The notes beneath the pieces are model-generated. The model was not told where the DNA came from. It saw only the letters and a list, made by a program, of their open reading frames with translations, and ran no database searches. A stretch of DNA of 64,000 nt. It comes from a virus. Positions 14,049 through 64,000 of this stretch are shown in pieces. The stretch is from the IMG/VR virus record IMGVR_UViG_3300027509_000012. One strand, 5' to 3'. Every line of letters begins with the position of its first letter. Position 1 is the first letter of the stretch. A program made the translations under genes and the position numbers.

Positions 14049-14588
14049 ATGAATACTAACGATTTATTAGAAACTAATTTAATTTGTACAGTGCTTGAGG
14101 GTAGTCATGCATATGGAACAGTCATACCATCTTCAGATCTTGATATGCGCGGAATTTTTTGTGGAAATCCAATTAATGTTAGAACACCATTTTTTCCTGT
14201 TAGGGAAATAGAGGTTGTTGAAGATGAAGATACTAAGTATTTTGAACTTAATCACTTTATGCGCTTATTGCTGGATCAAAATCCAAATATTGTACAGATG
14301 TTATGGGTACGCAATCAGGACATTATAAAATCAACTGAAGCATATGAGCTATTAAGATCACGTAGGGACAATTTTTTATCATCCAAAATAGCTTTCACAA
14401 CAGCAGGATATGCAGATTCTCAATTAAAAAGAATTAAATCATCAAAAAAACATGTAAACTACACCGATCAATTACATTCATTATCAACCGTTTTAACAAA
14501 AGCTTTGAAAGTGGGTGATATTGATCATACATGGATAAAAAACAATTGTGGTGATCAAGTATTGGACTATATAAAAAATGAAAAATGA
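14049..14588 (+). CDS. Pol-beta-family nucleotidyltransferase (putative RNA repair), N-terminal piece
   Basis: GSHAYG...SDLDMRG catalytic motif, NPNIVQMLW, GYADSQLKRIK; stops early with a ~40 aa unrelated tail. Confidence 0.82.
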   Translation: MNTNDLLETNLICTVLEGSHAYGTVIPSSDLDMRGIFCGNPINVRTPFFPVREIEVVEDEDTKYFELNHFMRLLLDQNPNIVQMLWVRNQDIIKSTEAYELLRSRRDNFLSSKIAFTTAGYADSQLKRIKSSKKHVNYTDQLHSLSTVLTKALKVGDIDHTWIKNNCGDQVLDYIKNEK

Positions 14589-15600
14589 TGAGTTGTTATT
14601 TAGAATCAACAATGAATTAATTCGAAAAGATGGAAAATTAAATGCACCCCTTTTAAACTTAAACTCTAAATGTGGGGATTTAATTTCATCTATTATAAAA
14701 CATACGCATTATTTAAATAGTGATGCGACTATAAGCCAAAGAATATGGCATATCACAAAAAATGTTCACACTACACCAAAATGTTGGTGTGGGAAAAATT
14801 CGTTGTGGATAAATCCAAAATATTCAAAATATTGTTCTCAGGTTTGTGCAACTACTTCATTAGAAGCAAGACAGAGAACTAAAAAACAATTTACAGGGGT
14901 TAAATTGTCAAAAGAACGCATAGATAAAATTATAAAAAGAAATACTGGTTCTAAACGTTCTATCGAATGTAGGAAAAAACTTAGTGATGGTAAATTAGGC
15001 AAAAAAAATCCACAATACGGTAAAAAATCATGGAACGCTGGGCTGTATGGAACTGATAATCCAATGTTTGGAGTTAAAAGACCCGGCACCGGATTGAAGG
15101 GTAAAGACAATCCATCATATGGAAAATCACCTCCCCTCGGCACAGGCTTTGGAATAAATGGAAAATTCAACGAAATACATTTTAGAAGTAGTTTAGAATT
15201 GTTGTATCTCATGTATTGGTATTCAACAAATATTATAGTAATTTCCGCAGAATCGTCAGATTTTAGAGTTAAATATTCCGATGATAAAAATGATATTAGA
15301 GCATATACGCCAGATTTCTATATACCATCGTTGAATACAGTTTATGAAATAAAACCTGAAAAATTACAAAAAAATAAAATAGTTCAGTTAAAATTTAATG
15401 CATTAATTGAACATCATAGTAATTTAATATGTAAATTAATTGGATATTCTGAAATAAGTGATTTTATTTTTTCAATTGATTTAAATTCCACTATTAATAA
15501 TTATATTGATAGTGGAGTTCTTAAAATTAACAAAAAACAATTTGAGAGGTTGCAAAAAAATTATGGAGATATCATTAGAGAATCTGCTAAACAAGTATGA
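14578..15600 (+). mobile_element. free-standing homing endonuclease (Cys-rich N-domain, NUMOD3-like repeats, PD-(D/E)xK/TnsA-like nuclease)
   Basis: PKCWCG...YCSQVCA; HxxxxK-like / GKKNPQYGK / NPMFG repeats; FRSSLE...YTPDFY...YEIKP; overlaps both halves of the nucleotidyltransferase. Confidence 0.8.
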
Positions 15601-16273
15601 TGCTCCAGATAATCATATTAATGATTGTTTGAAATTATGTATTCCGAGGCAAGAGTGTTATATTCATTTAATTCAGTGGTTCGCGGATAATAAAGTTATG
15701 CCGAATACATTTGATATAATGACATACAGCAATAATCATAGATTTATAAGTTATGGAAATGATTTGTATGGAATGTACGACTGGAATAAATTTAAATTAT
15801 TTAATCCAGATGGTTCGATTAAAGATAATTTTGATGGCTCAAGAGAATCACTGGGACAACCAAAGGCGATTGTTAAATTAAATAGATCTAAATGGACAGA
15901 TGATAAAAATTTCTATGACAAATATTGGTTATGGAAAAAAAATAGAAATGAAAAACGAGCTAAGTTAGAAGCTGAATTTTTTTATGATACAAAAAATGCT
16001 ATGCATCTCGTCAGACTTCTCAGAATGGGCTACGAAACACTTACTACAGGACAAGTAAACGTGTTCAGAGATGATGCTTCAGAGCTGTTAGAGATTCGCA
16101 ATGGCTCTCTCACATACGACGAAATATTAGCATATGCAGATACTATGGACATTAAAATAAAAGAAGCGTATGATAATACCGAACTGTCCCGCAAACCTAA
16201 TGTTAAATTAGCGGCACAGACTATAATGGAAGTACAAGATTTAATTTGGAATTCAAATGACAATAACAAATAA
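15563..16273 (+). CDS. nucleotidyltransferase, C-terminal piece
   Basis: YWLWKKNRNEKRAKLE..FFYDTKNAMHLVRLL.MG...L is the typical C-half of this family; GAGAGG RBS then ATG 15563 inside the endonuclease 3' end. Confidence 0.8.
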   Translation: MEISLENLLNKYDAPDNHINDCLKLCIPRQECYIHLIQWFADNKVMPNTFDIMTYSNNHRFISYGNDLYGMYDWNKFKLFNPDGSIKDNFDGSRESLGQPKAIVKLNRSKWTDDKNFYDKYWLWKKNRNEKRAKLEAEFFYDTKNAMHLVRLLRMGYETLTTGQVNVFRDDASELLEIRNGSLTYDEILAYADTMDIKIKEAYDNTELSRKPNVKLAAQTIMEVQDLIWNSNDNNK

Positions 16274-16766
16274 AATTAATCATAAAATTGACATTCGTGA
16301 AAAACAGTATGATGATTACACACAAGAAATCTTTGAATTGATTTCGCCTATAATAATAGGCGTCAATGAATTTTTATTTCATACTTCTATATTAAGTGAT
16401 GGTGACGAACTAATATTAAATACTATTGATCCTGTCGAAGATGTGTATATCATCACAGGATTTATAACTGCACCAGTCGGTACTGACATTCAATTGCAAG
16501 ATGGTTCAATAGTAGAAATCAATGATATACAAGATCAATTTGAATATAGAAAGAAATTTCGAATTCAAGTACCATCTGATTTAATAGATGCTAATGATAG
16601 TGATGAAGTGTTTGAATATTTGGTAAATCATGCAGAGCCAAAAGCTAGAAAAAGAAAACATCTTAATTCGCTTAGAAAAGATGTTGCCGCTTCTATATCT
16701 AATGATATGGATGAAGAAGATATGAATGACATATTAGAAAATATGGATACAGGGGTAGCTCATTAA
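16257..16766 (+). CDS. hypothetical protein
   Basis: ORF in operon, phage-like codon use. Confidence 0.6.
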   Translation: MTITNKINHKIDIREKQYDDYTQEIFELISPIIIGVNEFLFHTSILSDGDELILNTIDPVEDVYIITGFITAPVGTDIQLQDGSIVEINDIQDQFEYRKKFRIQVPSDLIDANDSDEVFEYLVNHAEPKARKRKHLNSLRKDVAASISNDMDEEDMNDILENMDTGVAH

Positions 16767-17225
16767 ATGGCAGGAGATATTAATTTAGGACGGAAGTTTG
16801 AAAAGCTCCCAGATGTATTGGAATACTATGAAAACGAGTATGCTAATTTTGAATCTGATTTAAAAATGAAAGGTAAGACTATCGAGCGCATCAGCACCGA
16901 TATTCCAGCCTACTATGCTTTTTATTCTGAACGTCACAATGAATTAAAGAAAATCCTATCCTATATGGAAGCCAGAGTCGCCCAAGTTAGAGGAAAATTA
17001 TATAGTGGAATTAAGAAAAGCTCACAGGTTGCCCTCGGAGAAAGAGAGATAAATAAATACATCGATGCAGATGATATTTACCTAGAAGTGCATGGATATA
17101 TGCTAGAAGTAAGAGAGGTACACGACATGTATGCATCAGCAGTCGAAAGCTGGAGAGTCGCAGGATTTTCCATGAACAATATTGTTAAAGCGAGGGTAGC
17201 GGATGTTTCTGACATTACATTATAA
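16767..17225 (+). CDS. uvsY: UvsY-like recombination mediator
   Basis: All-helical ~150 aa, EREINKYIDADD; directly upstream of UvsW. Confidence 0.7.
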   Translation: MAGDINLGRKFEKLPDVLEYYENEYANFESDLKMKGKTIERISTDIPAYYAFYSERHNELKKILSYMEARVAQVRGKLYSGIKKSSQVALGEREINKYIDADDIYLEVHGYMLEVREVHDMYASAVESWRVAGFSMNNIVKARVADVSDITL

Positions 17226-18748
17226 TGGATAAAAAATGCACTCTCGTAATCAAAGATGAAGTTAATTGTTCTGTACGTGGATTGCAAAACCAACACAAAG
17301 ATAAATTAAAAGCTCAATACGCAATATTCTCACCCACCAGATTTTATAATATAAAATTTAAGCTCGGCCAATGGGACGGTAAAATCATGTTCTTTAAGGA
17401 CAATGGTGACACCTATCTGCACTTATTAGATGAAATTGTTCCCTATCTTGATGATGTTGGGTATGACATAGAACTTGTCGATAACAGACGTTCAAAAATT
17501 TGCGAACCGGATCCCATTGATAATCAGTACTTAAATTATATGACTGGGCCTGATGGCAATCCTCTGATACTCAGGGATCACCAAGTGGACGTTATTAATA
17601 CGTTAATTAAACATGGTAATGGCATCGGAAAAGCCAGCACCGGATCTGGTAAAACTTACGTAACCGGATGCTTAACTAAAATATACGAAGAAGCATGTGG
17701 ATTTAATGTTATCACAATAGTACCTAATAAAACATTGGTAAGGCAAACACACAAGGATTATGTGTTAATGGGAATAGATGCTGGAGTTTATTACGGAGAT
17801 AAAAAGGAATTGAATCATATTCATTTAGTATCAACGTGGCAATCATTAAAAAACAAACCAGAATTAATGGATCGTTTTCATGCGGTGATAGTAGACGAAG
17901 CGCATATGGTAAAAGGACCAATACTCCAAACACTTTTATTAAAACATGGAAGAAATCTTCCAGTTCGGTTTGGTGTGACTGGAACAATGCCAAAAGAAGA
18001 AATAGATGAAATGACTGTACATATGGCATTAGGCCCAGAACGCATAGATATTCCAGCACACACTTTGATAGAAAAAGGATTATTGTCTAATCTTGATATT
18101 GAAATTTATGAGTTAGAACATGATCTAGCCATTCATTACGATGCGTATCTCGAAAGTTTTAGACCATCACTTGTAGAAAAGAAGCCAGTAACCTATAAAC
18201 AATTTAGAGATACATTTCTACCAGACTATCAATCTGAAAAGAAATTTAATAATAATTCAAAAGAACACATGGCATGGATAGCTCAAAAACTAGTTCATTA
18301 CAGAGATAATTATGGAAATGTATTATGTTTAGTAGATGGTGTTAAATACGGAAAAGATCTAGCCAATATGATTGAAGGTGGAGTATTTCTTTCTGGTAGT
18401 GATAAAGTAAAAGATCGAGAGAAGATATATGCAGAATACGCAGACAGAGATGATATTATATTAATAGCAACATCTCAAATAGCAAGCACAGGCTTAAATA
18501 TCAAACGTATATTCACACTAGCATATATTAATTTTGGAAAGTCTGGAATTAAAACAGTGCAAAGTATTGGCCGTGGGCTTCGAATGGATGTGGATAAGAA
18601 CAAAGTAAAAGTATTGGACATTTATGCTGATTTAAAATATTCTAGGAGACATAGTAGAGAGCGCATTAATTTTTATAAAGAGGCGAAGTATCCATACAAA
18701 AAACAAATCGTAAAATTCAAAGGGTTGGATTCAGATATATTTGATTAA
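17225..18748 (+). CDS. uvsW: UvsW-like SF2 DNA helicase
   Basis: LRDHQ, STGSGKT, IVDEAH, FGVTGT, STGLNI, QSIGRGLR. Confidence 0.92.
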   Translation: MDKKCTLVIKDEVNCSVRGLQNQHKDKLKAQYAIFSPTRFYNIKFKLGQWDGKIMFFKDNGDTYLHLLDEIVPYLDDVGYDIELVDNRRSKICEPDPIDNQYLNYMTGPDGNPLILRDHQVDVINTLIKHGNGIGKASTGSGKTYVTGCLTKIYEEACGFNVITIVPNKTLVRQTHKDYVLMGIDAGVYYGDKKELNHIHLVSTWQSLKNKPELMDRFHAVIVDEAHMVKGPILQTLLLKHGRNLPVRFGVTGTMPKEEIDEMTVHMALGPERIDIPAHTLIEKGLLSNLDIEIYELEHDLAIHYDAYLESFRPSLVEKKPVTYKQFRDTFLPDYQSEKKFNNNSKEHMAWIAQKLVHYRDNYGNVLCLVDGVKYGKDLANMIEGGVFLSGSDKVKDREKIYAEYADRDDIILIATSQIASTGLNIKRIFTLAYINFGKSGIKTVQSIGRGLRMDVDKNKVKVLDIYADLKYSRRHSRERINFYKEAKYPYKKQIVKFKGLDSDIFD

Positions 18749-18796
18749 AATGTGATGTGTGTGGTATAATTCTTTTAACTACAAAGAGAATTAAAT

Positions 18797-19285
18797 ATGC
18801 TGGTATTTCAAGAATCACAGGCAGTAACAATGATAGATAATATCCGTCCTATTATTATGGAAGAATATTTTTGGGTCATGGATTTAGATATGAAAGATTT
18901 CATAATTACACCATTAAATGTCATTGAAGCAACTACAGCACCGTCAATAGAATTGTTAATAGATGGTTTTAATTTTATTGTACCAGCAACATGGAATATA
19001 TTAATTGTAGATCCAGAAACATCACAGCTTGATATATCAGAAGTAGGAGCGGTGTTGGGGAAACAATTTCATTGCTTTTGTTATGGTTTTAATAACTCAA
19101 TGGTTGAAATGCACGTAATAGAAGCAGTGGATTATCATGCATCTGAAACATCGTTCTCTCCATCGATGAGTAAAAGTCATATGCTTTGTCATCCAATAGA
19201 TCAAGATCGATGGATTAATTTATCTCCAGCCGATTCATATAACAAACATTTTAGAAACACATTATTATCAGGAGATTTTGTATGA
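18797..19285 (+). CDS. conserved jumbo-phage hypothetical protein downstream of uvsW
   Basis: ORF preceded by extended -10 TGgTATAAT; beta-rich sequence. Confidence 0.6.
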   Translation: MLVFQESQAVTMIDNIRPIIMEEYFWVMDLDMKDFIITPLNVIEATTAPSIELLIDGFNFIVPATWNILIVDPETSQLDISEVGAVLGKQFHCFCYGFNNSMVEMHVIEAVDYHASETSFSPSMSKSHMLCHPIDQDRWINLSPADSYNKHFRNTLLSGDFV

Positions 19286-19860
19286 CCGACAATGACGAGA
19301 TTATCAGCAATTCAGAGGTTGGAAAGAAAGCCGTACCATCATTTAAAGATACATTGAAAGAATCATTAAAGACTCCTGAATCTGATAAACCAAACATGCC
19401 AGTAAAGGTAAAAGCTGAGACTAAAAAGCCAGCAGCTAAAAAACGAGCACCACGCAAAAAAGCGAAACCAAAGGTTGAGGAAATATCTGCATCTGATTTA
19501 AAAACATGGATAGAAGGTGTTGAATCTATGCAAGATGATGATTGGCATCCATCACCAGAGCAATGGCAAAAAATTAGAGATAAGATTGCATCACTGGAAA
19601 CTACTCCATCGGTTGTGCAACAACCTGTTGCATCTAAAGTTCAACAAACATCAACGCAACAAGTAATTCACGAAGCACCAGCTCAGCAAGCACCAGCCCA
19701 ATCTTCATTGATCATTCATGAAGCACCACCAACACAAGCAGGGCCATCAGTGATATTGCCTAATGAAAATCCATTAAAGCCAGTTAATGCAGATGGACTT
19801 GTTGATGTTTCACCTAAAGTTAAACCTGACGGATCGTATGAATCATCATTCGGTTCGTAA
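19282..19860 (+). CDS. hypothetical protein (WIEGVESMQDDDWHPSPEQWQKIR core, low-complexity flanks)
   Basis: ATGA overlap with previous gene. Confidence 0.6.
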   Translation: MTDNDEIISNSEVGKKAVPSFKDTLKESLKTPESDKPNMPVKVKAETKKPAAKKRAPRKKAKPKVEEISASDLKTWIEGVESMQDDDWHPSPEQWQKIRDKIASLETTPSVVQQPVASKVQQTSTQQVIHEAPAQQAPAQSSLIIHEAPPTQAGPSVILPNENPLKPVNADGLVDVSPKVKPDGSYESSFGS

Positions 19861-20374
19861 TAGAATTGTTTGGTATGATGGGACCACTACTGTCCCATCG
19901 TCAGAGATAGAAGAATATATTCAGTATGCAAATACTGGAAAAGTGTTTGTGGATGAAATGACTGATGATCTACGACAATATAATAAATTTGCATCAGACG
20001 CAAAAATCACAACACGCGAATCAGACTTATCAATAACACCTAAATGGTTATTGCCAAAATATTTTATTGATATGGATCTACAATCTCTTATAGATCAACA
20101 ACTTGCAGACGAAATAGATAAATCTAACTTCTCTGACGATGAAACCAACAAAAGAATTGATAGAATTGATGAAGAAATGATCGCTTATCGAGAATTTAAT
20201 TTAATTCCAGTATTACATGCTATTTTATATATAATAAATAGGTTTGAGGAAAAGGATATAGTCTGGGGTGTGGGCCGAGGTAGTTCGGTAAGCTCATACG
20301 TATTGTATTTAATGAAAGTCCATGATGTGGATAGTGTTGAATATGATCTAGATTTTAATGAATTTATAAGATAG
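19838..20374 (+). CDS. DNA polymerase III alpha (DnaE)-like fragment A
   Basis: WGVGRGSSVSSYVLYLMKVHDVDSVEYDLDF matches the DnaE GxGRGS..LV.Y.L.IT.vDP..y.L.FERF segment; ATG 19838 preferred. Confidence 0.8.
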   Translation: MNHHSVRNRIVWYDGTTTVPSSEIEEYIQYANTGKVFVDEMTDDLRQYNKFASDAKITTRESDLSITPKWLLPKYFIDMDLQSLIDQQLADEIDKSNFSDDETNKRIDRIDEEMIAYREFNLIPVLHAILYIINRFEEKDIVWGVGRGSSVSSYVLYLMKVHDVDSVEYDLDFNEFIR

Positions 20375-20382
20375 GTCAAATC

Positions 20383-20799
20383 ATGAGTCGAAAACCAAAA
20401 CATATTACATCTGCTGGTGTTGAAGTTAATTATGATCTTATACGTGCAAAGCAACAAATGGCTGAAATGCCAGCATCTGCTGAAGTCCAAGAACGTCAGG
20501 AAAGAATTAATGCTAGACTTCGACGTAAGATGAATGCACTAGGTCCAACTCGAAAGAAAATTAAAAAAGATGAAGTAAAAACAAAATCAGAAAAACCAGA
20601 AGCTGAGAAGCGAATAATTAAAGAAGAAAAATTAGTCGAAGAAGTTGAAAGTACTGATGTAGAAAATGAAAAAGAAGTTGTGAAAGATAGTGATGTTGAT
20701 GTACAATCTAATGATAAGAAATCAACTAGGGGCCGCCAAAAAGCGAAGCCACCAACTATTAAGAGAGATAAAGACGATGACAACAGCAGCGGATCTTAA
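20383..20799 (+). CDS. hypothetical charged protein
   Basis: ORF; TSAGVEVNYDLIR N-terminus. Confidence 0.55.
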   Translation: MSRKPKHITSAGVEVNYDLIRAKQQMAEMPASAEVQERQERINARLRRKMNALGPTRKKIKKDEVKTKSEKPEAEKRIIKEEKLVEEVESTDVENEKEVVKDSDVDVQSNDKKSTRGRQKAKPPTIKRDKDDDNSSGS

Positions 20800-21103
20800 A
20801 CCACTACACAATCAAATTTTTTTTAGATTTGAAGAAAAGACAGTAACAAACTCAAAAGGTCAAAAAATGTTCGAAACTCAAACAGACAATGGTATCGTTG
20901 TTATGGGTAATATCGAAGACTCCACATCCACACCTAAATGGGGAACAGTAATCGCCGTAGGCCATAAAACAAAAGAAGTTGTTGTTGGTGATAGAATTTT
21001 AATTGAACCTTTAATGTGGACAAATGGAATTAAATTAAAAAACGATGATACGTTCTGGAAAACAAACGAAGATAAAGTAATAGGCATAGATAAAGTAGTT
21101 TAA
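20777..21103 (+). CDS. groES: GroES-like co-chaperonin
   Basis: LKPLHNQIF, TDNGIVV, GTVIAVG, VVVGDRILI; ATG 20777 preferred. Confidence 0.8.
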   Translation: MTTAADLKPLHNQIFFRFEEKTVTNSKGQKMFETQTDNGIVVMGNIEDSTSTPKWGTVIAVGHKTKEVVVGDRILIEPLMWTNGIKLKNDDTFWKTNEDKVIGIDKVV

Positions 21104-21107
21104 TATA

Positions 21108-21136
21108 TTGACATTAAATATACTCACCAGTATAAT
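21108..21136 (+). promoter_or_regulatory. consensus sigma70 promoter
   Basis: TTGACA (21108-21113) -17- TATAAT (21131-21136). Confidence 0.8.
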
Positions 21137-21160
21137 TCAATGATTTACTGGTGAGTGTTC

Positions 21161-22102
21161 ATGCATAGAAAATTCAAAGAACTATGGGTTGAGAAGTATA
21201 GACCCAAGAAAATCGACGATTATATTTTTGAAAATGAGACTCACAAAGTCGCGTTTCAAACATTCATTAAAGAAAAATCAATTCCACATTTACTACTCAC
21301 AGGTATTCAGGGTAGTGGTAAGTCAACAATATCTCAAATATTAATTGATTCGATGAATGTTGACGAAGCCGATATTCTCACTATCAATGCATCTGATGAA
21401 AACTCAGTTGATATTATGCGCGAAAAAATAAATTCGTTTGTAATGTCATACGCATTTGGTGATGGTACTAAAATAGTCTTACTTGAAGAAGCTGATTACA
21501 TTACACCCAACGGTCAAGCAGTAATGCGTAGGTTAATGGAAGAATATGTTGACGAAGCAAGATTCATACTGACAGGTAATTACGAAAATAAAATTAAAGA
21601 GCCTATTAAATCAAGATGCCAGCATTTTAGATTTAAGGCAGCAGATCCTGATGATATTGCAGAGTATGTAGCGAACATATTAGTTTCAGAAGAAATTGAT
21701 TTTGATTTAGAACAACTTGATTTATATGTAGCAGCCAGTTATCCAGACATTCGAAAGATTGTTAATTCGATTCAACAAAGCATTGATGATGATAGTTTGA
21801 TGGATATAGCAGCAAAAGCTGCAACAAGCACCGAGGATTTTCGTATAACGTTAATGGGCCACATCACAAATGATGATTGGATTAAGGCTAGACAAGTTGT
21901 TTGTGGACATGCCTCTAATCAAGAGATAGAAGAAATATATACATTCTTGTACAAAAACTTAGATAAATCTAAGAAGTTCTCTAAACAAGATAAGTGGGAA
22001 GCTGGACAATTAAAAATCGCGGAATACTTATACACACATTCAATGGTGGCCGATCCAGAAATAAATCTGGCAGCACTGTTCATCGAATTAAAGCAGGTAT
22101 AA
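21161..22102 (+). CDS. clamp loader AAA+ subunit (gp44/RFC small)
   Basis: LWVEKYRP, GIQGSGKS, INASDE, LLEEAD, SRCQ, YPDIRK. Confidence 0.92.
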   Translation: MHRKFKELWVEKYRPKKIDDYIFENETHKVAFQTFIKEKSIPHLLLTGIQGSGKSTISQILIDSMNVDEADILTINASDENSVDIMREKINSFVMSYAFGDGTKIVLLEEADYITPNGQAVMRRLMEEYVDEARFILTGNYENKIKEPIKSRCQHFRFKAADPDDIAEYVANILVSEEIDFDLEQLDLYVAASYPDIRKIVNSIQQSIDDDSLMDIAAKAATSTEDFRITLMGHITNDDWIKARQVVCGHASNQEIEEIYTFLYKNLDKSKKFSKQDKWEAGQLKIAEYLYTHSMVADPEINLAALFIELKQV

Positions 22103-22106
22103 CATA

Positions 22107-22403
22107 ATGACTACAAATGATCAAAAGCAGGCCGTAGAAACAGCTTCATCAAAGCCAGAAAAAGCTTCATGGAAACGTAAACAAAAAAATATCGATAAAC
22201 TTCATGTAGAGTTAGAAGAATTAGAAGATAAAATCTTTGAGCTTATGGCAGAAAAAATAAAACTTATTGATAGAATAACTACAACCCGAGGGGTTATGGT
22301 TAATGAATGTATTCACCCACATGATATGTTAGTGGGTCAGGATGATGATTCAATTCTATGTAAGTTTTGTAATAAATCTTTGGGTGTCGTTAAAAGACCG
22401 TAA
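22107..22403 (+). CDS. hypothetical coiled-coil protein with C-terminal Cys/His motif
   Basis: ECIHPHD...CKFC. Confidence 0.55.
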   Translation: MTTNDQKQAVETASSKPEKASWKRKQKNIDKLHVELEELEDKIFELMAEKIKLIDRITTTRGVMVNECIHPHDMLVGQDDDSILCKFCNKSLGVVKRP

Positions 22404-22417
22404 TTGGAGATTTTATC

Positions 22418-23556: not shown

Positions 23557-23568
23557 AAGTCATCAATC

Positions 23569-52444: not shown

Positions 52445-52447
52445 TAA

Positions 52448-54932: not shown

Positions 54933-55139
54933 ATGGAACAAATTGATTACCAGAAACACATAAGACACGCACATATTTTACGAGCTGAAATGGTTAGAAA
55001 TTTTTTTAAAGATCGACGCGATAAAAAAATGGCATATAAACAGCTAAAGTTTTTATCCAATCAACAATTATTTGATATCGGCATAGATCCTCATTTGCTT
55101 AATAAGGGACCAAAGTATTTTCCGTGGAAAGCTAAATAA
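54933..55139 (+). CDS. DUF1127 (YjiS-like) small protein
   Basis: RRDKKMAYKQLKFLSNQQLFDIGI; R-rich N-part. Confidence 0.75.
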   Translation: MEQIDYQKHIRHAHILRAEMVRNFFKDRRDKKMAYKQLKFLSNQQLFDIGIDPHLLNKGPKYFPWKAK

Positions 55140-55208
55140 TTTTAGATTAAGGTATTTTGGAATGTAAAACCATGATATAATTATTTCTCATTAATTAATA
55201 ATTATATC

Positions 55209-56474
55209 ATGGAACAATTTGCATCATATTTAGACAGTATGGGCTTAGGGGAGATGTCAGCCTCTCTCATTGGCCTTGCAGCATTATCTACTGCATTTCA
55301 TTTTATTTGGGGTTTCATAGCACCAGTACTGAATGGTTTTCAAAAATCTCTTTACAATATGATTGTAAGAGAACTTGAAGTCTATGTTGCAGATCCTGAT
55401 TATAATAAAATTAATATCTGGATTGAACAAAATCAACAGTATACTAGATTTCAACGCACCTATAAAATAATAACACCTCGTGGTGAAACTGAAACTGCTC
55501 ATGATGATTATGAAACATCAGTTACTAAAGAAAAGAAAGTTAATAAGTTAGTTGCAGGCTACGGTACTATATGGATGTTCCATCCAAAATATAAACTAAT
55601 GTCTATATCAAGACAGAAAATTGAAAACAAGCAAGTCTATGCACAGACAGAATCACTGTACGTTAGATTCTTTTCTTTTTCAGCATTAAATATTCTTAAA
55701 TTTTTCAGCGCAATTTCTCATTTAGAAGATGATGATGGCCCGTTTGTCTATGATACATCAGATTCATATTCACAATGGTGGCGCAATTTGGGAATGCCTA
55801 AGAAGGTATATCCACCAGTGGGTGAGCAAGCCAATTATTTTTTAAATGATATTAAAAACTTTTTGGAGAAGAAGGAACTATATAAGAAAAGAAATGTTCC
55901 ATTCAAAAGAGGTTATTTATTGTATGGAGAGCCGGGTACTGGGAAGACTTCAATTATTTCACATCTCTCCTACAAACATAGTTTGAATTTGTATTCTTTA
56001 AAAGCAGAATCAATTTCTAATTTTTCTCAATTGATGCACCAGATAAAACCAAACTCTATAATTGTAATTGAAGATATAGATTTTACATCTATCGGAAAGA
56101 AACGAAGGGGTGCTGGCAATAAAAAATCAGAGACAGCCGAAGAACCAAAAAAGAAAGATGAATCAACAATGCAACAATTTTTAAATGTACTTGATGGTAT
56201 TATTGATTTCAATGGATGTATTGTTGTAGCTACTACAAATAAAAATCCAGATGATTTGGATGGTGCATTAATTCGACCCGGCAGATTAGATCAAAAAATT
56301 CACATTGGAAGATTAAATCATGATTCACAAGTAAATCACATAAACCATTTCTATGAATCTGAGATATCTCCCGCAGATATACCAACACAGGAACCTAGAA
56401 CATTTGCAGAATTACAGCATTTATGTTTAGCTCACATAGAATCAATAGATGATTTGGTGGAGAATTTGAAATGA
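55209..56474 (+). CDS. BCS1-like membrane-anchored AAA ATPase
   Basis: N-terminal TM; D.YNKI..WI, GYG.IW; VPFKRGYLLYGEPGTGKTS, IVIEDID, LNVLDG, TTN, ALIRPGRLD. Confidence 0.8.
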   Translation: MEQFASYLDSMGLGEMSASLIGLAALSTAFHFIWGFIAPVLNGFQKSLYNMIVRELEVYVADPDYNKINIWIEQNQQYTRFQRTYKIITPRGETETAHDDYETSVTKEKKVNKLVAGYGTIWMFHPKYKLMSISRQKIENKQVYAQTESLYVRFFSFSALNILKFFSAISHLEDDDGPFVYDTSDSYSQWWRNLGMPKKVYPPVGEQANYFLNDIKNFLEKKELYKKRNVPFKRGYLLYGEPGTGKTSIISHLSYKHSLNLYSLKAESISNFSQLMHQIKPNSIIVIEDIDFTSIGKKRRGAGNKKSETAEEPKKKDESTMQQFLNVLDGIIDFNGCIVVATTNKNPDDLDGALIRPGRLDQKIHIGRLNHDSQVNHINHFYESEISPADIPTQEPRTFAELQHLCLAHIESIDDLVENLK

Positions 56475-56884
56475 AAGAACAGCACATAAACATACCAGAA
56501 GAAATGAAAAAACATTTAGATGAAAAATATTCATCACACATTCCTGTAGGATGGAAATCATTGGTTGAAGAATTACATACAGAATTAGTTGCTGTGGATG
56601 AAGATTATAAACTAACATTAATTAAAGAAAAATTTGGTGTATTAGTAATATATGTTGAATATATAAAAAATAAAAATCCATTAAAAACTGCTATAGATGT
56701 AATGCGCCGATACGAACAAAAATCATCAACTGTGTGTATGGAATGTTCAAGCACTGATGGTATTTGGGGTATAAAATCAAAGGATGTTAATTGGTTAGTA
56801 GTAAATTGTCTTAAATGTCAATCAGATACGTTCAAAGACAATAGAGATACGGAAATATATAATCGAATAACAGGAGCTACTTAA
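56471..56884 (+). CDS. conserved phage hypothetical protein
   Basis: GWKSL...IKEKFG.L..Y...CMEC...C..C. Confidence 0.65.
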   Translation: MKEQHINIPEEMKKHLDEKYSSHIPVGWKSLVEELHTELVAVDEDYKLTLIKEKFGVLVIYVEYIKNKNPLKTAIDVMRRYEQKSSTVCMECSSTDGIWGIKSKDVNWLVVNCLKCQSDTFKDNRDTEIYNRITGAT

Positions 56885-57481
56885 ATGAAAAAGAATAACG
56901 TTAGTCCGATTGATCCTAGTATTAAAGTGGTTAAAAATCTTAAAGATCATCCACCAAAGCCTCCTAAGCGACCATCATGGGATCAAACATATATTAGTAT
57001 GTGCTACACCATAGCTGCAAAATCGCACGATCCTCGTACTAAGATTGGTTCTGTGGTTGTTGGTAAAGACATGACAATTAAAACAATTGGCTATAATGGC
57101 TTTCCTAGAGGCGTAAGCGCAAGGCCAGAGATATTAGAATCTCCAGAAAAATATAAATGGATGATTCATGCAGAAGTTAATGCAATGTCGAATGCTGGAC
57201 GAAATGGAATGTCATTAATCGATGCATCTATATACGTTAATTTAACACCATGTAATACTTGCGCTGGTATAATTATTCAACATGGAATCACTGAAGTAAT
57301 TGTTCATAAAAATGGTCAATCACTTTACGAAACTAGTTCTGGAAAAGACGGAAGTTATTGGGAAGAAAGTTTTATATGTACCAAAAAAATGTTCAGAGAG
57401 GCTGGAATAAAATTAAGATACGTTGACTATTCTCCAAATCAATTAGATGCGTGGTTTAATTCTCAAAGTTTTAGAATTTGA
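56885..57481 (+). CDS. dCMP deaminase-like protein
   Basis: KSHDP.TKIG, GYNGFPRG, HAEVNA, PCNTCA. Confidence 0.9.
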   Translation: MKKNNVSPIDPSIKVVKNLKDHPPKPPKRPSWDQTYISMCYTIAAKSHDPRTKIGSVVVGKDMTIKTIGYNGFPRGVSARPEILESPEKYKWMIHAEVNAMSNAGRNGMSLIDASIYVNLTPCNTCAGIIIQHGITEVIVHKNGQSLYETSSGKDGSYWEESFICTKKMFREAGIKLRYVDYSPNQLDAWFNSQSFRI

Positions 57482-57579
57482 TTCTAAATAGAAGTATAGA
57501 TTTTATTGAAGAAATAAAATTGTATACTTCGACTATCCTGTTGAGGTATAATATTCACTCAATTTGGAGAGCAGCCTAG

Positions 57580-57894
57580 ATGTTATTAGAAGTCAATGAT
57601 AGTACGTTTGAGACAGAAGTTTTGAATAGTAAAGGGATTGTAGTTGTAGATTATTATTCTAACTCTTGCGCACCATGCAAACGATTGATGCCTAAATTGG
57701 AAAATGTTAGTGGAAGTATTACTTCTGGAAAAATTGTTAAAGTGGATGTTGAACATAATTTTGAAGCATCGATGCGGAATAAAGTTAAAACAATACCAAC
57801 TCTTATCGTTTATAAGAATGGTGAGGTTGTAGGCGACCATCGTGGATGCAGTCAATTGTCAGAATCTGAGATAAAAAATCTCCTAGAACAATAA
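57580..57894 (+). CDS. thioredoxin
   Basis: VDYYSNSCAPCK (CxxC), IVKVDV, IPTLIVYKNG. Confidence 0.88.
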   Translation: MLLEVNDSTFETEVLNSKGIVVVDYYSNSCAPCKRLMPKLENVSGSITSGKIVKVDVEHNFEASMRNKVKTIPTLIVYKNGEVVGDHRGCSQLSESEIKNLLEQ

Positions 57895-57917
57895 TTTGAT
57901 CGCCATAAATATTAATT

Positions 57918-58118
57918 ATGGCAGAAAAAACAGAACGTAAACTAGGCGATTTAACTTCCGACGCTCTCAGAGCCGCTAGATTGGATAGGTTAGCAACAGC
58001 ATATACTGCTGTGACTGGCAAACCATGCAATTGTGCTAATAACAAAAAGGCTCTAAATAACATACACGATAAGTTAAGAGAGGCGATGATCAATGGCAAA
58101 GGAAGAAAAAACGGCTGA
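57918..58118 (+). CDS. small hypothetical protein
   Basis: CATAAATA upstream; PCNC motif. Confidence 0.5.
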   Translation: MAEKTERKLGDLTSDALRAARLDRLATAYTAVTGKPCNCANNKKALNNIHDKLREAMINGKGRKNG

Positions 58119-58314
58119 ACAAAAGGCTATCGAGAAATTAATTGCTCGCAATGATAAATTAGAAAAGGTTGTAACTCAGCTTCTCGCCCAAAACAAAAGT
58201 CTCCTAAATACCTGCAATAAACTCCAACGTGAAACTAAACGATTGGATTCTAATCAAAAACAATCTACTGCAAAATTAACACGCGCACTGGATAGTTTAA
58301 CTGGTAGGTATTAA
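58093..58314 (+). CDS. small coiled-coil protein
   Basis: Heptad pattern; GAGG RBS. Confidence 0.55.
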   Translation: MAKEEKTAEQKAIEKLIARNDKLEKVVTQLLAQNKSLLNTCNKLQRETKRLDSNQKQSTAKLTRALDSLTGRY

Positions 58315-58315
58315 T

Positions 58316-58795
58316 ATGTACGCAATGGTAACTAAAATAATAATGTCTCAACTAGGACCGATTCTTAAAGTTGTCGGAACTAGATGGCGCGAATTATTAA
58401 TTGTTGCATTGATGGTTATTGTTGTTTATCAAAACATTTCAAACACTCGCTGGGTATTCTGGGCTGATACTATTCCATATCTACAGGCAGAAATTGTAGA
58501 TGCCGAACTCAAAGTAGATCTTGCACTCCAAGCAAACAGTACATTACGAGAATCTATCGAAAAAACTAACGATCAAATAACGGGATGGCGTATACTATCA
58601 AAAAGTCTAGAAAAGCAATCTGATTTATTGCAGATGGATTTAATTGTAGCTCGTATCAACACAGATACTACAGTTAGAGAAGTTATACGTGAAGATACTC
58701 CTACTTCGTGTTCAGCAGCATTTGAATATTTAAGAGATGCAATTCCAGAACTTAATTATACAGATGATCTAATCGATGGAGATTTGTTCGAATGA
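58316..58795 (+). CDS. i-spanin (Rz-like)
   Basis: N-terminal TM, coiled coil, distal Cys (PTSC); overlaps the lipoprotein gene by ATGA. Confidence 0.7.
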   Translation: MYAMVTKIIMSQLGPILKVVGTRWRELLIVALMVIVVYQNISNTRWVFWADTIPYLQAEIVDAELKVDLALQANSTLRESIEKTNDQITGWRILSKSLEKQSDLLQMDLIVARINTDTTVREVIREDTPTSCSAAFEYLRDAIPELNYTDDLIDGDLFE

Positions 58796-59124
58796 AATTA
58801 ATTTTTGTACTATTATTAATTACTCCAATTCTCACAGGATGTGGTGTGTTTGGTAAGCAGCGTATCGTAACTGAAACAATAGAAGTCAAGGTTCCCGTAC
58901 TATATTCACCTAAACCACCAGTTATCGTGCGACCAGTGCTAGCAATCCATGAGATGACAGAAGCTCAGAAGAAAGATGCTGGTACTATAGCTCAATATTA
59001 TAAAGCTACTATAATCCAACTTCTAGGATATTCTAAGGAATTGGAAGATGCACTTAATGATTATCAGTTAATAAGTGAAGCTTTAGAAGAAAAGGCTAAC
59101 GAAGCAACTCCTATTCTGGAGTAA
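58792..59124 (+). CDS. o-spanin (Rz1-like lipoprotein)
   Basis: Lipobox LTGC, Pro-rich VPVLYSPKPPVIVRP. Confidence 0.7.
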   Translation: MKLIFVLLLITPILTGCGVFGKQRIVTETIEVKVPVLYSPKPPVIVRPVLAIHEMTEAQKKDAGTIAQYYKATIIQLLGYSKELEDALNDYQLISEALEEKANEATPILE

Positions 59125-59202
59125 AATCCCTTAAATTAATATTTTTTAGCACAATGATGTTTATCTATACTAAATAGATGTATCATTTGCTGGAAAAGAT
59201 TA

Positions 59203-59556
59203 ATGTCGATACTGAAAGAATTGAACGAGCGGAAAAACGATACGGAAATTCCTTTAATGGAATGTATTGATGATGCTGTGGCTGAAATTCTTGGCGAAGC
59301 TAAAAACAGTGCTCGATTTAATAAATTTTTCAATTCAAATAGAGAGCTTGTTCAGAATGCTTCGGTTATAGCATTGAGTGATTTTAACAAGTTTAATAAA
59401 AATACACGAAAAACCGTAACGCTTCATGCTAAAGATGGACACGAACGTAGGACTGTTTCTGGCATTGTTGATTCACTGGTTAAGAGTGGAGATTATCGAA
59501 TCCAAAAATTGAAGTACCATATGGGCCGAAAAATGTGGATTCTTAAAAGAAAATAA
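59203..59556 (+). CDS. putative internal head protein (MSILKELNE leader)
   Basis: Shared leader; LHAKD..ER. Confidence 0.55.
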   Translation: MSILKELNERKNDTEIPLMECIDDAVAEILGEAKNSARFNKFFNSNRELVQNASVIALSDFNKFNKNTRKTVTLHAKDGHERRTVSGIVDSLVKSGDYRIQKLKYHMGRKMWILKRK

Positions 59557-59597
59557 AACCCTAAACCAAACTATTAAACAGTACAGGATATTAAATT

Positions 59598-60305
59598 ATG
59601 AAAATCAATCAAATACGTAATCTAAAAGAAGAACGCGATCTTGAAAAAGATGACGCTGAACTCAGGAAAATTAATGCAAAGAACAAAGATAAAGACGACG
59701 AAAAAGAAACTGCTGGTGATGCAGCCAAACGTCGAAGCGAAGCTTTCCGCAAAAAAGTAGGAAAAGCTCAAGGTGAAGATGGTGATGGTACTGTCGGTTC
59801 TAAACAAAAGCCATTGTCTGCTAAAGCTAAAGCTACAAATGATAAGAAAAAGGCTGATGCTAAAAAGTCTAAAGACACTTATGATAGTCCTGAAGCAAAA
59901 GCACGTCGAGCTGCTGGTGCAGAAGATGGTGATTATCTAGAAAGAACTGCAAAACGTCGAGCAGCTAAAGCAGCTCATGTTGGTGATGAGAAAGATCCAG
60001 TTAAAGCTAAAGCTAAGCGTAAAGAGTTCGATGATAATGATCCATATACTCAAGGTCAACGAAAAGCTAGTAAAGATTATAGAGATGAAAAGACAGCTAA
60101 AAAGTCTGTAGCTAAAGCATCAGAAAAAGCTGAGCGTAAGCAAGAAAATAAAGCAGCGCATAAAAAATCTATGGATAAAATAGCAGCTAAAGAGCCAAAT
60201 CGTGCTAGAGACATTAAGAAAGAGATGTCTGATCGAGATGAGACAACTGCAAAACGAAAGACTTTAAAGGTTAATCGTGACGAAAAGAAAGAAACAGCTA
60301 AATAA
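59598..60305 (+). CDS. Lys/Ala/Asp-rich low-complexity protein, putative internal head protein
   Basis: MKINQIRNLKEE leader; highly charged. Confidence 0.55.
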   Translation: MKINQIRNLKEERDLEKDDAELRKINAKNKDKDDEKETAGDAAKRRSEAFRKKVGKAQGEDGDGTVGSKQKPLSAKAKATNDKKKADAKKSKDTYDSPEAKARRAAGAEDGDYLERTAKRRAAKAAHVGDEKDPVKAKAKRKEFDDNDPYTQGQRKASKDYRDEKTAKKSVAKASEKAERKQENKAAHKKSMDKIAAKEPNRARDIKKEMSDRDETTAKRKTLKVNRDEKKETAK

Positions 60306-60386
60306 TAGCTTTTAATTTCAATAATAACCAAAAATGCCCAGCTATATGTTGGGCATTCTGGGTATAAACTTAGCGAGAATAATATA

Positions 60387-61376
60387 ATGGTTTCTAAAAA
60401 ATTATTAGAAAGTGTCAAAAAAGAATCCCCAACTACAAATACGGGTGGATTTAAAGATTTCCTATTGTCTGAAACAAAAGACGATCTTAATTTAAGTCCA
60501 AAAGAAAAGAAAAAGCGTGATGCAGCTATAGAAAAATATAATAAGTCTAAAGCTAACAGAACCTATTCTAAAAAAGAAGCGGAACCGACTAAAGTATATT
60601 ATGATCAAGATAAAATGGAAGAATCTGACTCTACTAAGCAAAAAACTAATGAAAGTGTAGTTACTGAAGGAAAAGGTGTCCGTACTGATTATGCTAAAGA
60701 TTCAGATCTTGTTTCAGTATATAACAAAGCTAATGATAAAGAAGAAATAGCCGTTGATAAAAAAGAAGTTTTTACTCAAAAGGATAAAACTAAAACAAAA
60801 GCCAACAAAAATGATCATCAAGCTGCCGCTCGTGAGCGTGGTAAGCAAATCGATGCAATGTTAAAAGCAAAAGCTGCTAAAGCTAAATCAGATAATAAAG
60901 AAGCTGTTACCGAAGCAGAAGATTTCTTAGTTAAAGAACAAGCTGATATGATTAATCGATCAATCCACTATGCTGAAGTTTACCTGCATGAGCATGGTAT
61001 TGCAGATCGACACTCAAGTGATTGGGATGATGTAGTTGCAGAAAAAGCCAAAGAGCGATTAGAAATAGTCATAGAATCTGGTTCTAATGCTGAAAAATGG
61101 GAAAAATGGAATGCACAGCGTGACGATTCTAAAGATAAGAAAAAAGTAGAAAAGAAAAAAGCAGAAAAGAAAGAAGATAAGCTAGAAGAAGCTGGTTGTG
61201 CTGATTGCGATGCTAAGCAAAAAGAAGATACTGATTTTACATTAGGTTGGAAATTACGCTCACAAGCTCGTGGTGCACCTCGTGATGTAGCGTCTGCATT
61301 AAACAAAAAAGCTGCTGATCATCAACAAAAATGGAATGATAAAAAAGCATCTATTAAATGCGATAAATGTAAGTAA
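60387..61376 (+). CDS. charged putative internal head protein with multiple (I/L/V)xE motifs
   Basis: LLE, LSE, VTE (x2), LVKE, KLEE. Confidence 0.55.
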   Translation: MVSKKLLESVKKESPTTNTGGFKDFLLSETKDDLNLSPKEKKKRDAAIEKYNKSKANRTYSKKEAEPTKVYYDQDKMEESDSTKQKTNESVVTEGKGVRTDYAKDSDLVSVYNKANDKEEIAVDKKEVFTQKDKTKTKANKNDHQAAARERGKQIDAMLKAKAAKAKSDNKEAVTEAEDFLVKEQADMINRSIHYAEVYLHEHGIADRHSSDWDDVVAEKAKERLEIVIESGSNAEKWEKWNAQRDDSKDKKKVEKKKAEKKEDKLEEAGCADCDAKQKEDTDFTLGWKLRSQARGAPRDVASALNKKAADHQQKWNDKKASIKCDKCK

Positions 61377-61389
61377 AATTTGATATAAA

Positions 61390-61650
61390 ATGTTATTAGA
61401 AGAAATTTTAGAAGAAGGGCAGGATTTCAAAACACTTAAAAAGAATAAAGTGGAACTGACACCTGAAGAACGTTCTGAAGTTTTAGCTAAAGATGGTGTT
61501 TGGGGTAACGACGAAGTTGCTGTTTGGAAATCTAAAAAGAAAGATGGATCTTTCGTTTATGTTACAAATTCTCATCGAGCATTTAATACCGCTCCATCAC
61601 TTAAAGGTGCCATAGGAAAATTTCATTCCTTCATTAAGAGTACTGGCTAA
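61390..61650 (+). CDS. conserved small phage protein (MLLEEILEE leader)
   Basis: FKTLKKNKV.LT.EER...AVWKS...VTNSHRA...LKGAI. Confidence 0.65.
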   Translation: MLLEEILEEGQDFKTLKKNKVELTPEERSEVLAKDGVWGNDEVAVWKSKKKDGSFVYVTNSHRAFNTAPSLKGAIGKFHSFIKSTG

Positions 61651-62186
61651 TGAGTATATTAAAAGAATTAACCACAATGTCTGAAGCCACTGATCTTACA
61701 CAATTTCCTTCTGATGTTTATCATGAACTTGAAGAACACATTCATAAAGGCGCTAAAGACTTAGAACGAACCTATGCAAATGCATTGGAATTGGTCAAAG
61801 AAGCATTTAAAGTAGAACATGTAGAACTTCCAGATCCATCAATGAAAAAAGCATGGGATCAATTTACCCAATTGATTCATTATGCAACTGAAAAGCTTTT
61901 AAAGTTTCGAGGTATTGATGGTGATTGGCGAATGAGTTCTCATGCATTTCGAGAATCAACTGAATTTAATGATTATGAAGTTACTGTTACTAATAAAGGT
62001 ATAAGCGAAAGCTACATTGTGCGTGATGAAGATATTCAATCTATTGTTGAAAGCACAACTGATGTAATGAGTAACTTGTATGATGTTTCTGTAGAGCAAG
62101 ATGGTGATTCAGATGCACTTATATCATTTAGTAAGTGGAGTATCAAACAGCCAAAATCAATTAAGATTCAAAAAATCACTCCCTAA
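61650..62186 (+). CDS. putative internal head protein (MSILKEL leader)
   Basis: Same first 7 aa as 59203. Confidence 0.6.
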   Translation: MSILKELTTMSEATDLTQFPSDVYHELEEHIHKGAKDLERTYANALELVKEAFKVEHVELPDPSMKKAWDQFTQLIHYATEKLLKFRGIDGDWRMSSHAFRESTEFNDYEVTVTNKGISESYIVRDEDIQSIVESTTDVMSNLYDVSVEQDGDSDALISFSKWSIKQPKSIKIQKITP

Positions 62187-62268
62187 AATTAATTTTTTGT
62201 GTGATGTAGTTCCACATTATAATTAATTTCTCCTGTATTATTGCCGAATATACATCGGGAGCACCCAC

Positions 62269-62622
62269 ATGAACGATTATCAACAAACACTATATTCTGA
62301 CTTGATGGCGCTGGTCGCTGGATCAAAGAAGAAAATGTTTTTCTTTAAAGATCACGAACGAGATGGAAACCATTATCGAGTTTTCAGCTATCACATGGGA
62401 TCATATTCTGATTGGTTACTTCCATCTGCATTAGAATGCCGTGGCATCATGTTTCAAATGAATGGTGAAGAACCTATTGCATTAGCATCATTACCATTTC
62501 CTAAATTTTTTAACGTTTACGAGGCGTCCGACGATATAAATACTCTAGCAGAAGCATTAGTTAGAGATGGGAGATTATCAGAAGATGTATTCAACAGATT
62601 TAAAAAGAGAAATAAAAAATAA
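62269..62622 (+). CDS. Rnl1-type RNA ligase, N-terminal piece
   Basis: YRVFSYH..SYSDW..P.ALECRGIMF...LPFPKFFN as in T4 RnlA N-terminus; stops before the KxDG motif. Confidence 0.85.
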   Translation: MNDYQQTLYSDLMALVAGSKKKMFFFKDHERDGNHYRVFSYHMGSYSDWLLPSALECRGIMFQMNGEEPIALASLPFPKFFNVYEASDDINTLAEALVRDGRLSEDVFNRFKKRNKK

Positions 62623-63439
62623 ACTATTTTTTAAAAGCGGAATAATAAACAAATATATCTATACAGAAAAATTTTGGATTAAAAATAATTTAGTAGAGTT
62701 GCGAACTAATATATATGAAAAAACATCATTTATTCCATATGATGCTAGATTGGATGAACGATTATTTGTCATAATTAATGATGTTGATATATTACCTTTA
62801 TGTCCAGTTTGTGAAAAAATGGTTAAATTTAAAAGATATGGTCTGGGATATTCAACTTATTGTTCAGTAAAATGTAGAGCAAACCATAGTGAATGGCAAA
62901 TGGTAGTTAGGGATACAAATAAAAAACGATATGGTGTCGAATTTATTGCTCAATTACCACATGAACGAATTAAGCGAGGTATTGAGTTTAGATATAATGT
63001 GAAACACACTTTTGATTATTCTAATGCCCAGAAAAAAAGAAGAAAAACTTTAGTTAGAATATATGGAGAAGATTATAATTCTGGTTGGACAGAAGAAGCA
63101 ATTAAAAAAAGAATTAATAATGGTAATATGGTTCCTTATGAACTTCGAGATGAATATTTAGAATATAAAAGACAAGTTGAATTGATTACTAGAAAACAGC
63201 CAATTAATACTTTAGAAAATCATGAATTGCGGGGAGTTATTGGCAAAGATGAAAATCCATATCATTTAGATCACGTAATTTCTATGTACGAAGGTTTTAT
63301 GGAAGATGTACCACCCGAAATAATAGGTAATATTATAAATTTACGATTTATCCCAGCAGGAAAAAATATAACAAAGGGAAATAAATCAAATGGATCATTA
63401 CAGGACTTAATAGAACGCTATGAAAAAAGAATTCGATGA
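62585..63439 (+). mobile_element. free-standing HNH homing endonuclease with Cys-rich N-domain
   Basis: LPLCPVC...YSTYCSVKC; YHLDHVIS..GF...PPEIIGNI.NL..IP...N..K; GGAG then ATG 62585 (62567 also possible). Confidence 0.8.
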
Positions 63440-64000
63440 CTTAGTTGAAGCAAATGGATTAGAATCATTGTATGATTATTTTCCACATCTTAAACCATTA
63501 AATTGGAGTAAGTTTAAATGGGCAGAAAATAAAGCAGACGGAAGTATGATAGCCACATACTCTGATAATGGTCCTATGCGATTAAAATCAAAAACAGCAT
63601 TAGAATCAATTATGGCTAAAGATGCAGAATCATATCTACAATTGCCAGAAAATGCTGATTTGGAAAGAGCAATGCGACATTATCATAATGCTGGATACAC
63701 AATTGTTGGTGAGTGGTGCGATTCAACTAAGCCAGAATCTAGAATTGTATTGGCTTATGATAAACCACAATTAATAATTTTTGGTGTGCGAAGAAATAGT
63801 GATGGTCAAATCATTGATTATCGTCATGACGAAGGTTTGGTTGGTGATTGTTCTGATGAATACAAAAAACAGATGCGCGAAATACTGGTCTTGAATTCGG
63901 TTGAGCGAACACTAATTACCGATCCAGAAGAATTTAATAAATTAGCATTGAGTGAAACTGGTATCGAAGGATACGTTTACGTATTCGAAGATGATGTTCG
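63420..64000 (+). CDS. Rnl1-type RNA ligase, C-terminal piece, 3'-truncated by window edge (not in ORF track)
   Basis: Own translation: MKKEFDDLVEANGL...NKADGSMIATY...RLKSKT...TIVGEW...RIVL.YDKPQL...R...ETGIEGYV (motif I KxDGS, motif IV EGYV); open to window end. Confidence 0.85.
   Translation, partial: MKKEFDDLVEANGLESLYDYFPHLKPLNWSKFKWAENKADGSMIATYSDNGPMRLKSKTALESIMAKDAESYLQLPENADLERAMRHYHNAGYTIVGEWCDSTKPESRIVLAYDKPQLIIFGVRRNSDGQIIDYRHDEGLVGDCSDEYKKQMREILVLNSVERTLITDPEEFNKLALSETGIEGYVYVFEDDV

Follow-up and report, generated by a model that had tools for sequence, protein, structure and literature searches.

Two RNA-repair-type genes of a marine phage interrupted by free-standing endonucleases: probably separate, target-specific cassettes with terminal tags

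The stretch of viral DNA analysed here (IMG/VR virus record IMGVR_UViG_3300027509_000012; 64,000 nucleotides, hereafter the window) has a GC content of 34.6% and comes from a marine metagenome, in which the contig of this jumbo phage reaches up to 302 kb. It raises the question of whether two endonucleases that interrupt two different genes belong to one family of mobile cassettes. At locus A, an RlaP-like nucleotidyltransferase (NTase) is encoded by two open reading frames (ORFs; 14049-14588 and 15563-16273) that flank an endonuclease of 340 amino acids (aa); at locus B, an Rnl1 RNA ligase is encoded by two ORFs (62269-62622 and from 63420 onward, the latter of 329 aa) that flank an endonuclease of 284 aa. 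Both endonucleases are free-standing and lie inside genes that are continuous in relatives, and all four broken ends carry non-host peptides, here called tags. A preliminary description, made from the sequence of this stretch, had proposed that the two elements are one family on account of a shared Cys-rich N-terminal domain and similar tags. The best explanation of our results is that the two cassettes are separate, target-specific families. We consider it probable that they are independent homing cassettes of the 'genes-in-pieces' kind known from Aeromonas phage Aeh1, in which each tag pair would form a small helical domain in two parts, holding the broken loop together.

Two genes in pieces

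Both genes are split as had been claimed: PHROG 388 matched the N piece (profile positions 31-192) and the C piece (140-338) at locus A, PHROG 562 matched the N piece (4-93) and the C piece (91-239) at locus B, and the NTase matched the RlaP Pfam family PF10127 with 49.3 bits (cut-off 23). In comparison with intact homologues, a few loop residues are replaced at the break and a peptide is gained at each end, of ~42 and ~28 aa at locus A and of ~32 and ~24 aa at locus B. The C pieces appear to have their own ATG (15563 and 63420), a start that is conserved across relatives. The eight motifs quoted in the preliminary description were all found where it placed them, on the plus strand: 14725 and 14821 in endonuclease A, 62744 and 62849 in endonuclease B, 14493 and 62545 in the N-piece tails of loci A and B, and 15572 and 63429 in the respective C-piece heads. 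The features are the following, the 3' part of locus B having been read from a contig identical to the window (L008):

14049..14588, plus strand: N piece of the RlaP-like (PF10127 / PHROG 388) NTase, 179 aa, with Pol-beta GS and DxD motifs
14460..14588, plus strand: N-tag A (type 2, see below), ~42 aa, helix-Gly-turn-helix-helix, not in intact alleles
14578..15600, plus strand: endonuclease A, 340 aa, with Cys-rich N-domain (~aa 1-100), NUMOD3 repeats and TnsA-like PD-(D/E)xK domain; overlaps both NTase pieces
15544..15549, plus strand: Shine-Dalgarno (SD)-like sequence GAGAGG, 13 nt 5' of the ATG of the NTase C piece, within the end of endonuclease A
15563..16273, plus strand: NTase C piece, 236 aa
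Start of the NTase C piece to ~15646: C-tag A, the first ~28 aa; its first codons overlap, in another frame, those for the C-terminus of endonuclease A
62269..62622, plus strand: N piece of the Rnl1 RNA ligase, 117 aa, ending with the KFFN motif and then the tag
62524..62622, plus strand: N-tag B, ~32 aa
62567, plus strand: first ATG of the endonuclease B frame
62569-62574 and 62585, plus strand: SD-like GGGAGA and likely start codon of endonuclease B, encoded in the conserved core of N-tag B
62585..63439, plus strand: endonuclease B, 284 aa, with Cys-rich N-domain, DUF7487-like linker and HNH-type C-domain
63420..64000, plus strand: Rnl1 C piece, 329 aa in full (L008 11152-12141), extending beyond the window end
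First ~24 aa of the Rnl1 C piece: C-tag B, with the KxDG adenylation motif next

In the split ligase, the ECRG and KFFN motifs are in the N piece and the KxDG adenylation motif is in the C piece; in T4 Rnl1 these motifs hold essential residues, so that the active site would be shared between the halves. Rnl1 has an established role in RNA repair. For RlaP from bacteria, addition of a nucleoside monophosphate to damaged RNA 3' ends has been shown for two Pseudomonas proteins only (PMC12776372). Both targets would accordingly be classed by homology as RNA-repair-type enzymes, as the earlier account had it, and we infer that they may have an anti-defence role.

Relationship between the two cassettes

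The first ~160 residues of endonucleases A and B align with 26% identity over 175 columns (BLASTP, E 4e-6), and the Cys residues of this shared N-domain are invariant in an alignment of six sequences; the nuclease domains differ by profile matches, being TnsA-like PD-(D/E)xK plus NUMOD3 in A and HNH-type in B. Both of these observations had been made correctly from the sequence, but the grouping drawn from them was not supported. A further ~25 phage ORFs contain the Cys-rich domain; where the flanks were read, these ORFs sit between intact genes, with intact nrdB/nrdA, tail tube/sheath, major capsid and tRNA genes as neighbours. The Hef-like / F-LimVIII-type free-standing endonucleases (PHROG 3339) have an N-domain related to that of A and B; unlike A and B, they are placed between uninterrupted genes and bring no tags with them. 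Conversely, most NTase splits (type 1, below) contain a GIY-YIG enzyme without the Cys-rich domain. In the tree of the domain, the A-type clade (98/97) and the B-type clade (91/78) are separate, and A and B were joined in 0/200 bootstrap trees. The Cys-rich domain is no marker of gene-splitting elements, and its presence in both endonucleases is best explained as that of an endonuclease module widely shuffled among elements.

Within each target family, the tags proved genuine and conserved; it is their similarity between the two loci that was borderline. Across targets, hhalign gave a probability of 0.8% for the N tags (0.2-0.8% over comparisons) and 8% for the C tags, unrelated family windows reached the cross-target score in 7/81 and 2/81 cases for the N tags and in 2/71 and 0/71 for the C tags, and single-sequence hidden Markov model (HMM) cross-scores between the tags of the two loci were at decoy level. 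When the NTase tag profile was compared with 1.84 billion representatives, 16 hits were obtained, and the 14 inspected were nine NTases and five helical/low-complexity repeats; the search with the Rnl1 tags, a strict pattern scan of limited reach, returned Rnl1 matches only. The tagged insertions found lie in the same two targets (15 NTase and seven Rnl1 loci), and no third target gene with either tag was found by the NTase profile or the Rnl1 pattern. Pfam assigned no consistent family to the tags, the SHOCT domain (PF09851) matching 1/7 NTase tags at E 0.011 and 0/5 Rnl1 tags. What remains of the cross-target likeness is a helix-G-x-[IL]-helix hairpin that also draws unrelated repeat proteins, and the resemblance of the A and B tags may be that of a common helix-G-x-[IL]-[STND]-helix hairpin. 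Because the tag profiles find their own target only and the Cys-rich domain is common elsewhere, the tag follows the target site and not the endonuclease family.

These results bear on the idea of one ancestral cassette family, in which a Cys-domain endonuclease with a homologous, interchangeable tag pair was retargeted to other genes. The common N-domain of A and B speaks for it, as do an A+B clade of the Cys-rich domain that was not rejected by the approximately unbiased (AU) test (p=0.079), cross-target tag scores in the top 0-9% of null windows, and scores against the Rnl1 tags that are higher for the window-type NTase tags than for type 1 (N, 10.99 vs 7.63; C, 13.3 vs 10.2). Set against the hhalign and decoy-level scores, the bootstrap trees, the intergenic endonucleases that share the domain, the type-1 cassettes that do without it and the target-bound search results, this idea seems unlikely to us, and so does a remote common origin of the tags of the two loci. 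The authors of the Aeh1 work expected tails to differ between targets (Crona et al., PMC3045599), an expectation that matches the data better than one family does.

Spread, persistence and assembly of the split alleles

The same-site tagged split of the NTase was found at 15 loci and comprises two tag types. Type 1 occurs with a LEM-3-like GIY-YIG enzyme (L011, L014, L016-L018, L067, L178) and type 2 with the Cys-domain PD-(D/E)xK enzyme (the window, L063, L065, L169, L267). Profile comparison indicates that the N-tags of the two types are homologous (hhalign 81%, E 1.2e-5, a score reached by 0/81 null windows), and homology between their C-tags was not detectable by it. A distant NTase, with 38% identity in the core and 45% in the tags, also carries type-1 tags. 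At three loci the split and the tags are kept and the endonuclease is lost, leaving a gap of 64 nt with a remnant of the end of the type-2 enzyme (L062), of 121 nt with a remnant of the GIY-YIG start (L071), or of 42 nt (L266). Type-1-like tags are fused in frame in seven Rak2-like jumbo phages, and type-2 tags in P0033 and P0037. Thus, the NTase was seen intact, split by two nuclease classes, nuclease-free and apparently re-fused, the direction from split to fused being one that we infer. Among ~58 loci of GIY-YIG relatives, whose flanks were judged by eye and with tag HMMs so that splits with unrelated tags may escape, one further split gene was found, again an NTase.

The Rak2-like phages CBB, BF, K64-1, Turkey5, XbC2, fHe-Yen9-03 and XaC1 (L142-L147, L004) have an NTase of ~415 aa with an insertion of ~65 aa resembling fused type-1 tags, and in the RlaP-family members of CBB, BF, K64-1 and XaC1 the insertion matches N-tag, linker and C-tag. 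Phage members of PHROG 388 belong to the same host-enzyme family as bacterial RlaP (PF10127) and are longer. The fused insertion was predicted to form five helices, with a mean predicted local distance difference test score (pLDDT) of 63 that was best in the N-tag part; at this pLDDT a fold search was uninformative (best Z 4.0, none >=5, and no viral match under E 0.001). Separately, an intein-like insertion of ~350 aa was observed at the GYD motif of the NTase C half (L071 3620-5443; also L107, L112, L115 and L139). Its presence in one split and several intact alleles makes the NTase gene a repeated target of homing elements.

The tagged split of Rnl1 recurs at the same site in seven loci. 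The site, tags and endonuclease of locus B are found in L013, L019, L257, L258 and L028, the last being Acinetobacter phage 133, for which GenBank HM114315 already annotates a 'split RnlA'. Several other alleles deviate. In L009/L010 (5001-5646) the ORF after a tagged Rnl1 N piece encodes 115 aa, is unrelated and overlaps the tag; the contig continues for ~780 nt, in which neither an endonuclease nor an Rnl1 C piece is adjacent. This is possibly a dispersed split gene. The intact RnlA of Aeromonas phage phiAS5 (L006 1770-2927) has a few extra residues at the split site, faintly like the end of C-tag B, which could be a reduced scar or chance. An intein-like insertion lies directly at the KxDG motif, near the split site, in L023 (from 3001, a 758-aa frame), and L056 (2806-4117) contains an Rnl1 with two frameshifts and no endonuclease, possibly through sequencing error.

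In trees of the gene cores without tags, the type-1 NTase alleles are scattered among intact alleles (seven changes for seven rows) and so are those of type 2 (five for five). Monophyly was rejected for type 1 (AU p=1.7e-5) and for the split Rnl1 alleles (AU p=2e-8), with phage 133 falling inside the T4-like phages, and on these trees both sets appear polyphyletic. L011 and L267 are identical in RecA to 100%, in UvsY to 97% and in the NTase N-core to 92%, yet they carry different cassettes, and intact NTase kin are 83-89% identical to both. Their DNA match stops ~405 nt into the NTase gene and returns ~400 nt into the C piece, and the stretch between looks like a co-conversion tract. In addition, the GHNKW motif, present in nearly all intact NTase alleles, is altered in 5/5 type-2 alleles, and the GYDTKH motif, which intact alleles keep, is altered in 5/6, a possible signature of self-immunity. 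Judged by these alignments and trees, each cassette demonstrably moves between phages and is specific to its target.

From these data we propose that each cassette consists of a free-standing endonuclease and flanking DNA, which extends the N piece at its end and the C piece at its start by one helical peptide each. The endonuclease would cut intact alleles during co-infection, and the cassette and its flanks would be copied in by homologous repair. The two pieces would be translated separately, and their tags would fold jointly, the resulting small helical domain taking the place of the broken surface loop so that enzyme activity is preserved. Deletion of the endonuclease followed by in-frame fusion would leave an insertion domain behind. 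Modelling covered the Rnl1 halves: the N and C pieces together scored 0.79, with 0.00 for the best control, a mark reached by 58/80 solved pairs and 2/110 mismatched pairs. The runs agreed in at least 83% of contacts with a partner pLDDT of at least 81, and the lowest-error pairs joined tag residues 93-107 to tag residues 4-17. The model reconstitutes the ligase from its halves and places the two tags against each other; only this tag-tag part is not known to have a template. The mobile unit of N-tag, endonuclease and C-tag in the preliminary description is upheld by the polyphyly of Rnl1 and type-1 alleles and by splits that outlive the endonuclease; that it makes heterodimers is, with the modelled tag packing, most likely. 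The net charges of the N and C tags are -1/-3 and +2/-4, and an Aeh1-type charge complementarity is not evident from them.

Several points weigh against this proposal. Monophyly of type 2, the type found in the window, was not rejected (AU p=0.24), and for this reason its mobility rests on the scatter in the tree and on the L011/L267 pair. The trees were quick searches that included co-converted flanks. The SD and the start codon of the endonuclease lie within the conserved core of N-tag B, and this overlapping signal may explain part of the tag's conservation. The score of the Rnl1 complex may reflect likeness to the solved T4 Rnl1. By analogy, dimerisation of the halves by the tags may not be automatic, since the tails of Aeh1 are dispensable for the heterodimer and needed for higher assembly (PMC3045599).

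Other explanations were weighed with the same alleles. The NTase tags might be halves of an older insertion domain, such as that of the Rak2-like phages and P0033, a tolerant domain in which an endonuclease landed, homing then spreading both halves to alleles that had no insertion; the fused forms would be the ancestors. A cut folded domain would explain the ready-made complementarity of the tags, the clade of the fused Rak2-like alleles is deep and well supported (100), and low HMM scores show that the insertion in these alleles has diverged from type-1 tags. However, there are two fused forms that each match one split type, most simply as two fusions; stepwise endonuclease deletions exist; the type-2 C-tags start within the endonuclease C-terminus in another frame; and no fused Rnl1 was found among ~40 intact alleles. 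We regard this order of events as possible, although not as the favoured one. That the split genes are dead or dispensable, with tags that are read-through by-products kept only by endonuclease-gene signals, could account for the overlap of N-tag B with the endonuclease start, for the Rnl1 N piece without an adjacent C piece in L009/L010 and for the long branch of the endonuclease-proximal parts of the window's NTase. It is very unlikely given that the halves are open and their catalytic motifs kept in all complete loci, and that the NTase N-tags lie mostly outside the endonuclease and are conserved after its loss (L062, L071, L266).

Even less probable is removal of the insert by RNA splicing (as an atypical group I intron), protein trans-splicing or ribosome bypassing to give one polypeptide. 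Such phages often carry endonucleases within introns and inteins, and inteins occur elsewhere in this NTase family, but the endonuclease-free alleles keep a stop and a restart only 42-121 nt apart, and the tags are conserved as protein and also fused in frame. A group I intron was rejected on the absence of an Rfam match, on these short gaps and on the overlapping ORFs, which leave no room for a ribozyme; a split intein was rejected because neither Hint-domain halves nor terminal Cys/Ser or His-Asn motifs were found, the C-tags ending without His-Asn plus Cys/Ser/Thr. A broader form of our proposal would make these cassettes a phage class of non-splicing 'docking-tag' mobile elements, which would join introns and split inteins as a third type of insertion that does no harm to the gene it occupies. 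Here the tag pair would be the heritable unit, recruit varied endonucleases, share a remote ancestor across targets, work on foreign proteins and, on endonuclease loss, be domesticated as an insertion domain; as a whole we consider this doubtful.

Around locus A, T4-superfamily-like uvsY/uvsW genes adjoin the NTase, and the ORF directly upstream of it (13116-14042) resembles a lipoprotein, contains EEPVV in tandem repeat and has a short C-terminus rich in Cys and Asp. In a syntenic relative (L001 2499-3971), an intact NTase has a different large free-standing endonuclease directly upstream. No tRNA genes were found within the 64,000-nt window.

Comparison with known split genes

The closest precedent for locus B is the rnlA-A / hypothetical / rnlA-B arrangement of Acinetobacter phage 133, which has the same gene and site, homologous tags and a homologous middle ORF (38% identical to endonuclease B, hypothetical in GenBank); by sequence, the two are the same element. 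The phage of the window differs from phage 133 in being a ~300-kb marine phage on another Rnl1 branch. The Rnl1 split was already annotated, and for the NTase series no report was found: a literature search limited to open papers returned none on split rnlA or a split NTase, nor a description of a split RlaP-family member. Phage 133 offers a cultured system for the split ligase, and the NTase series may explain why the enzyme of cultured Rak2-like jumbo phages has an insertion of ~65 residues. Natural tag pairs of ~30 and 25 aa could serve as heterodimerisation parts. For annotation, such gene halves are easily mistaken for pseudogenes.

Endonuclease-associated split enzymes that reassemble are known from T4 (gene 39 / mobA / gene 60, where gp39 and gp60 have tail-like extensions) and from Aeromonas phage 25 (split gene 43), with targets and nucleases other than those described here (PMC2988022, PMC3045599). 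Fractured genes with split inteins and free-standing endonucleases likewise combine an N piece and interaction module, an endonuclease, and an interaction module and C piece; there, the two modules are halves of an intein and bring about protein splicing (Dassa et al., PMC2677866), whereas the peptides described here are short, helical and without intein motifs.

The nearest likeness is to nrdA-a / mobE / nrdA-b of phage Aeh1, which also has a free-standing endonuclease in an enzyme gene, overlapping ORFs, two polypeptides (ORFs only in our case), foreign tails at both ends and no splicing (PMC3045599; PMC2988022). The Aeh1 tails bear opposite charges, promote assembly of the tetramer and are required for activity; here the net charges are small and the modelled contacts would be hydrophobic helix packing. 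The Aeh1 case was described as a single transposition event with tails that have no database matches (PMC3045599; PMC2988022), and Crona et al. proposed tails as a general way to neutralise gene fragmentation from one tested case without homologues (PMC3045599). The two families described here supply many natural alleles, and the NTase a full series, so that tail function, specificity and origin become directly testable. Unlike the Aeh1 tails, these tags form conserved families across distant phages, remain after the endonuclease has gone, are combined with more than one nuclease class and are also seen in fused form. As far as our searches reach, what is new relative to Aeh1 is the conserved tag families, their site-specific spread, two nuclease classes with related tags, nuclease-free persistence and the fused forms.

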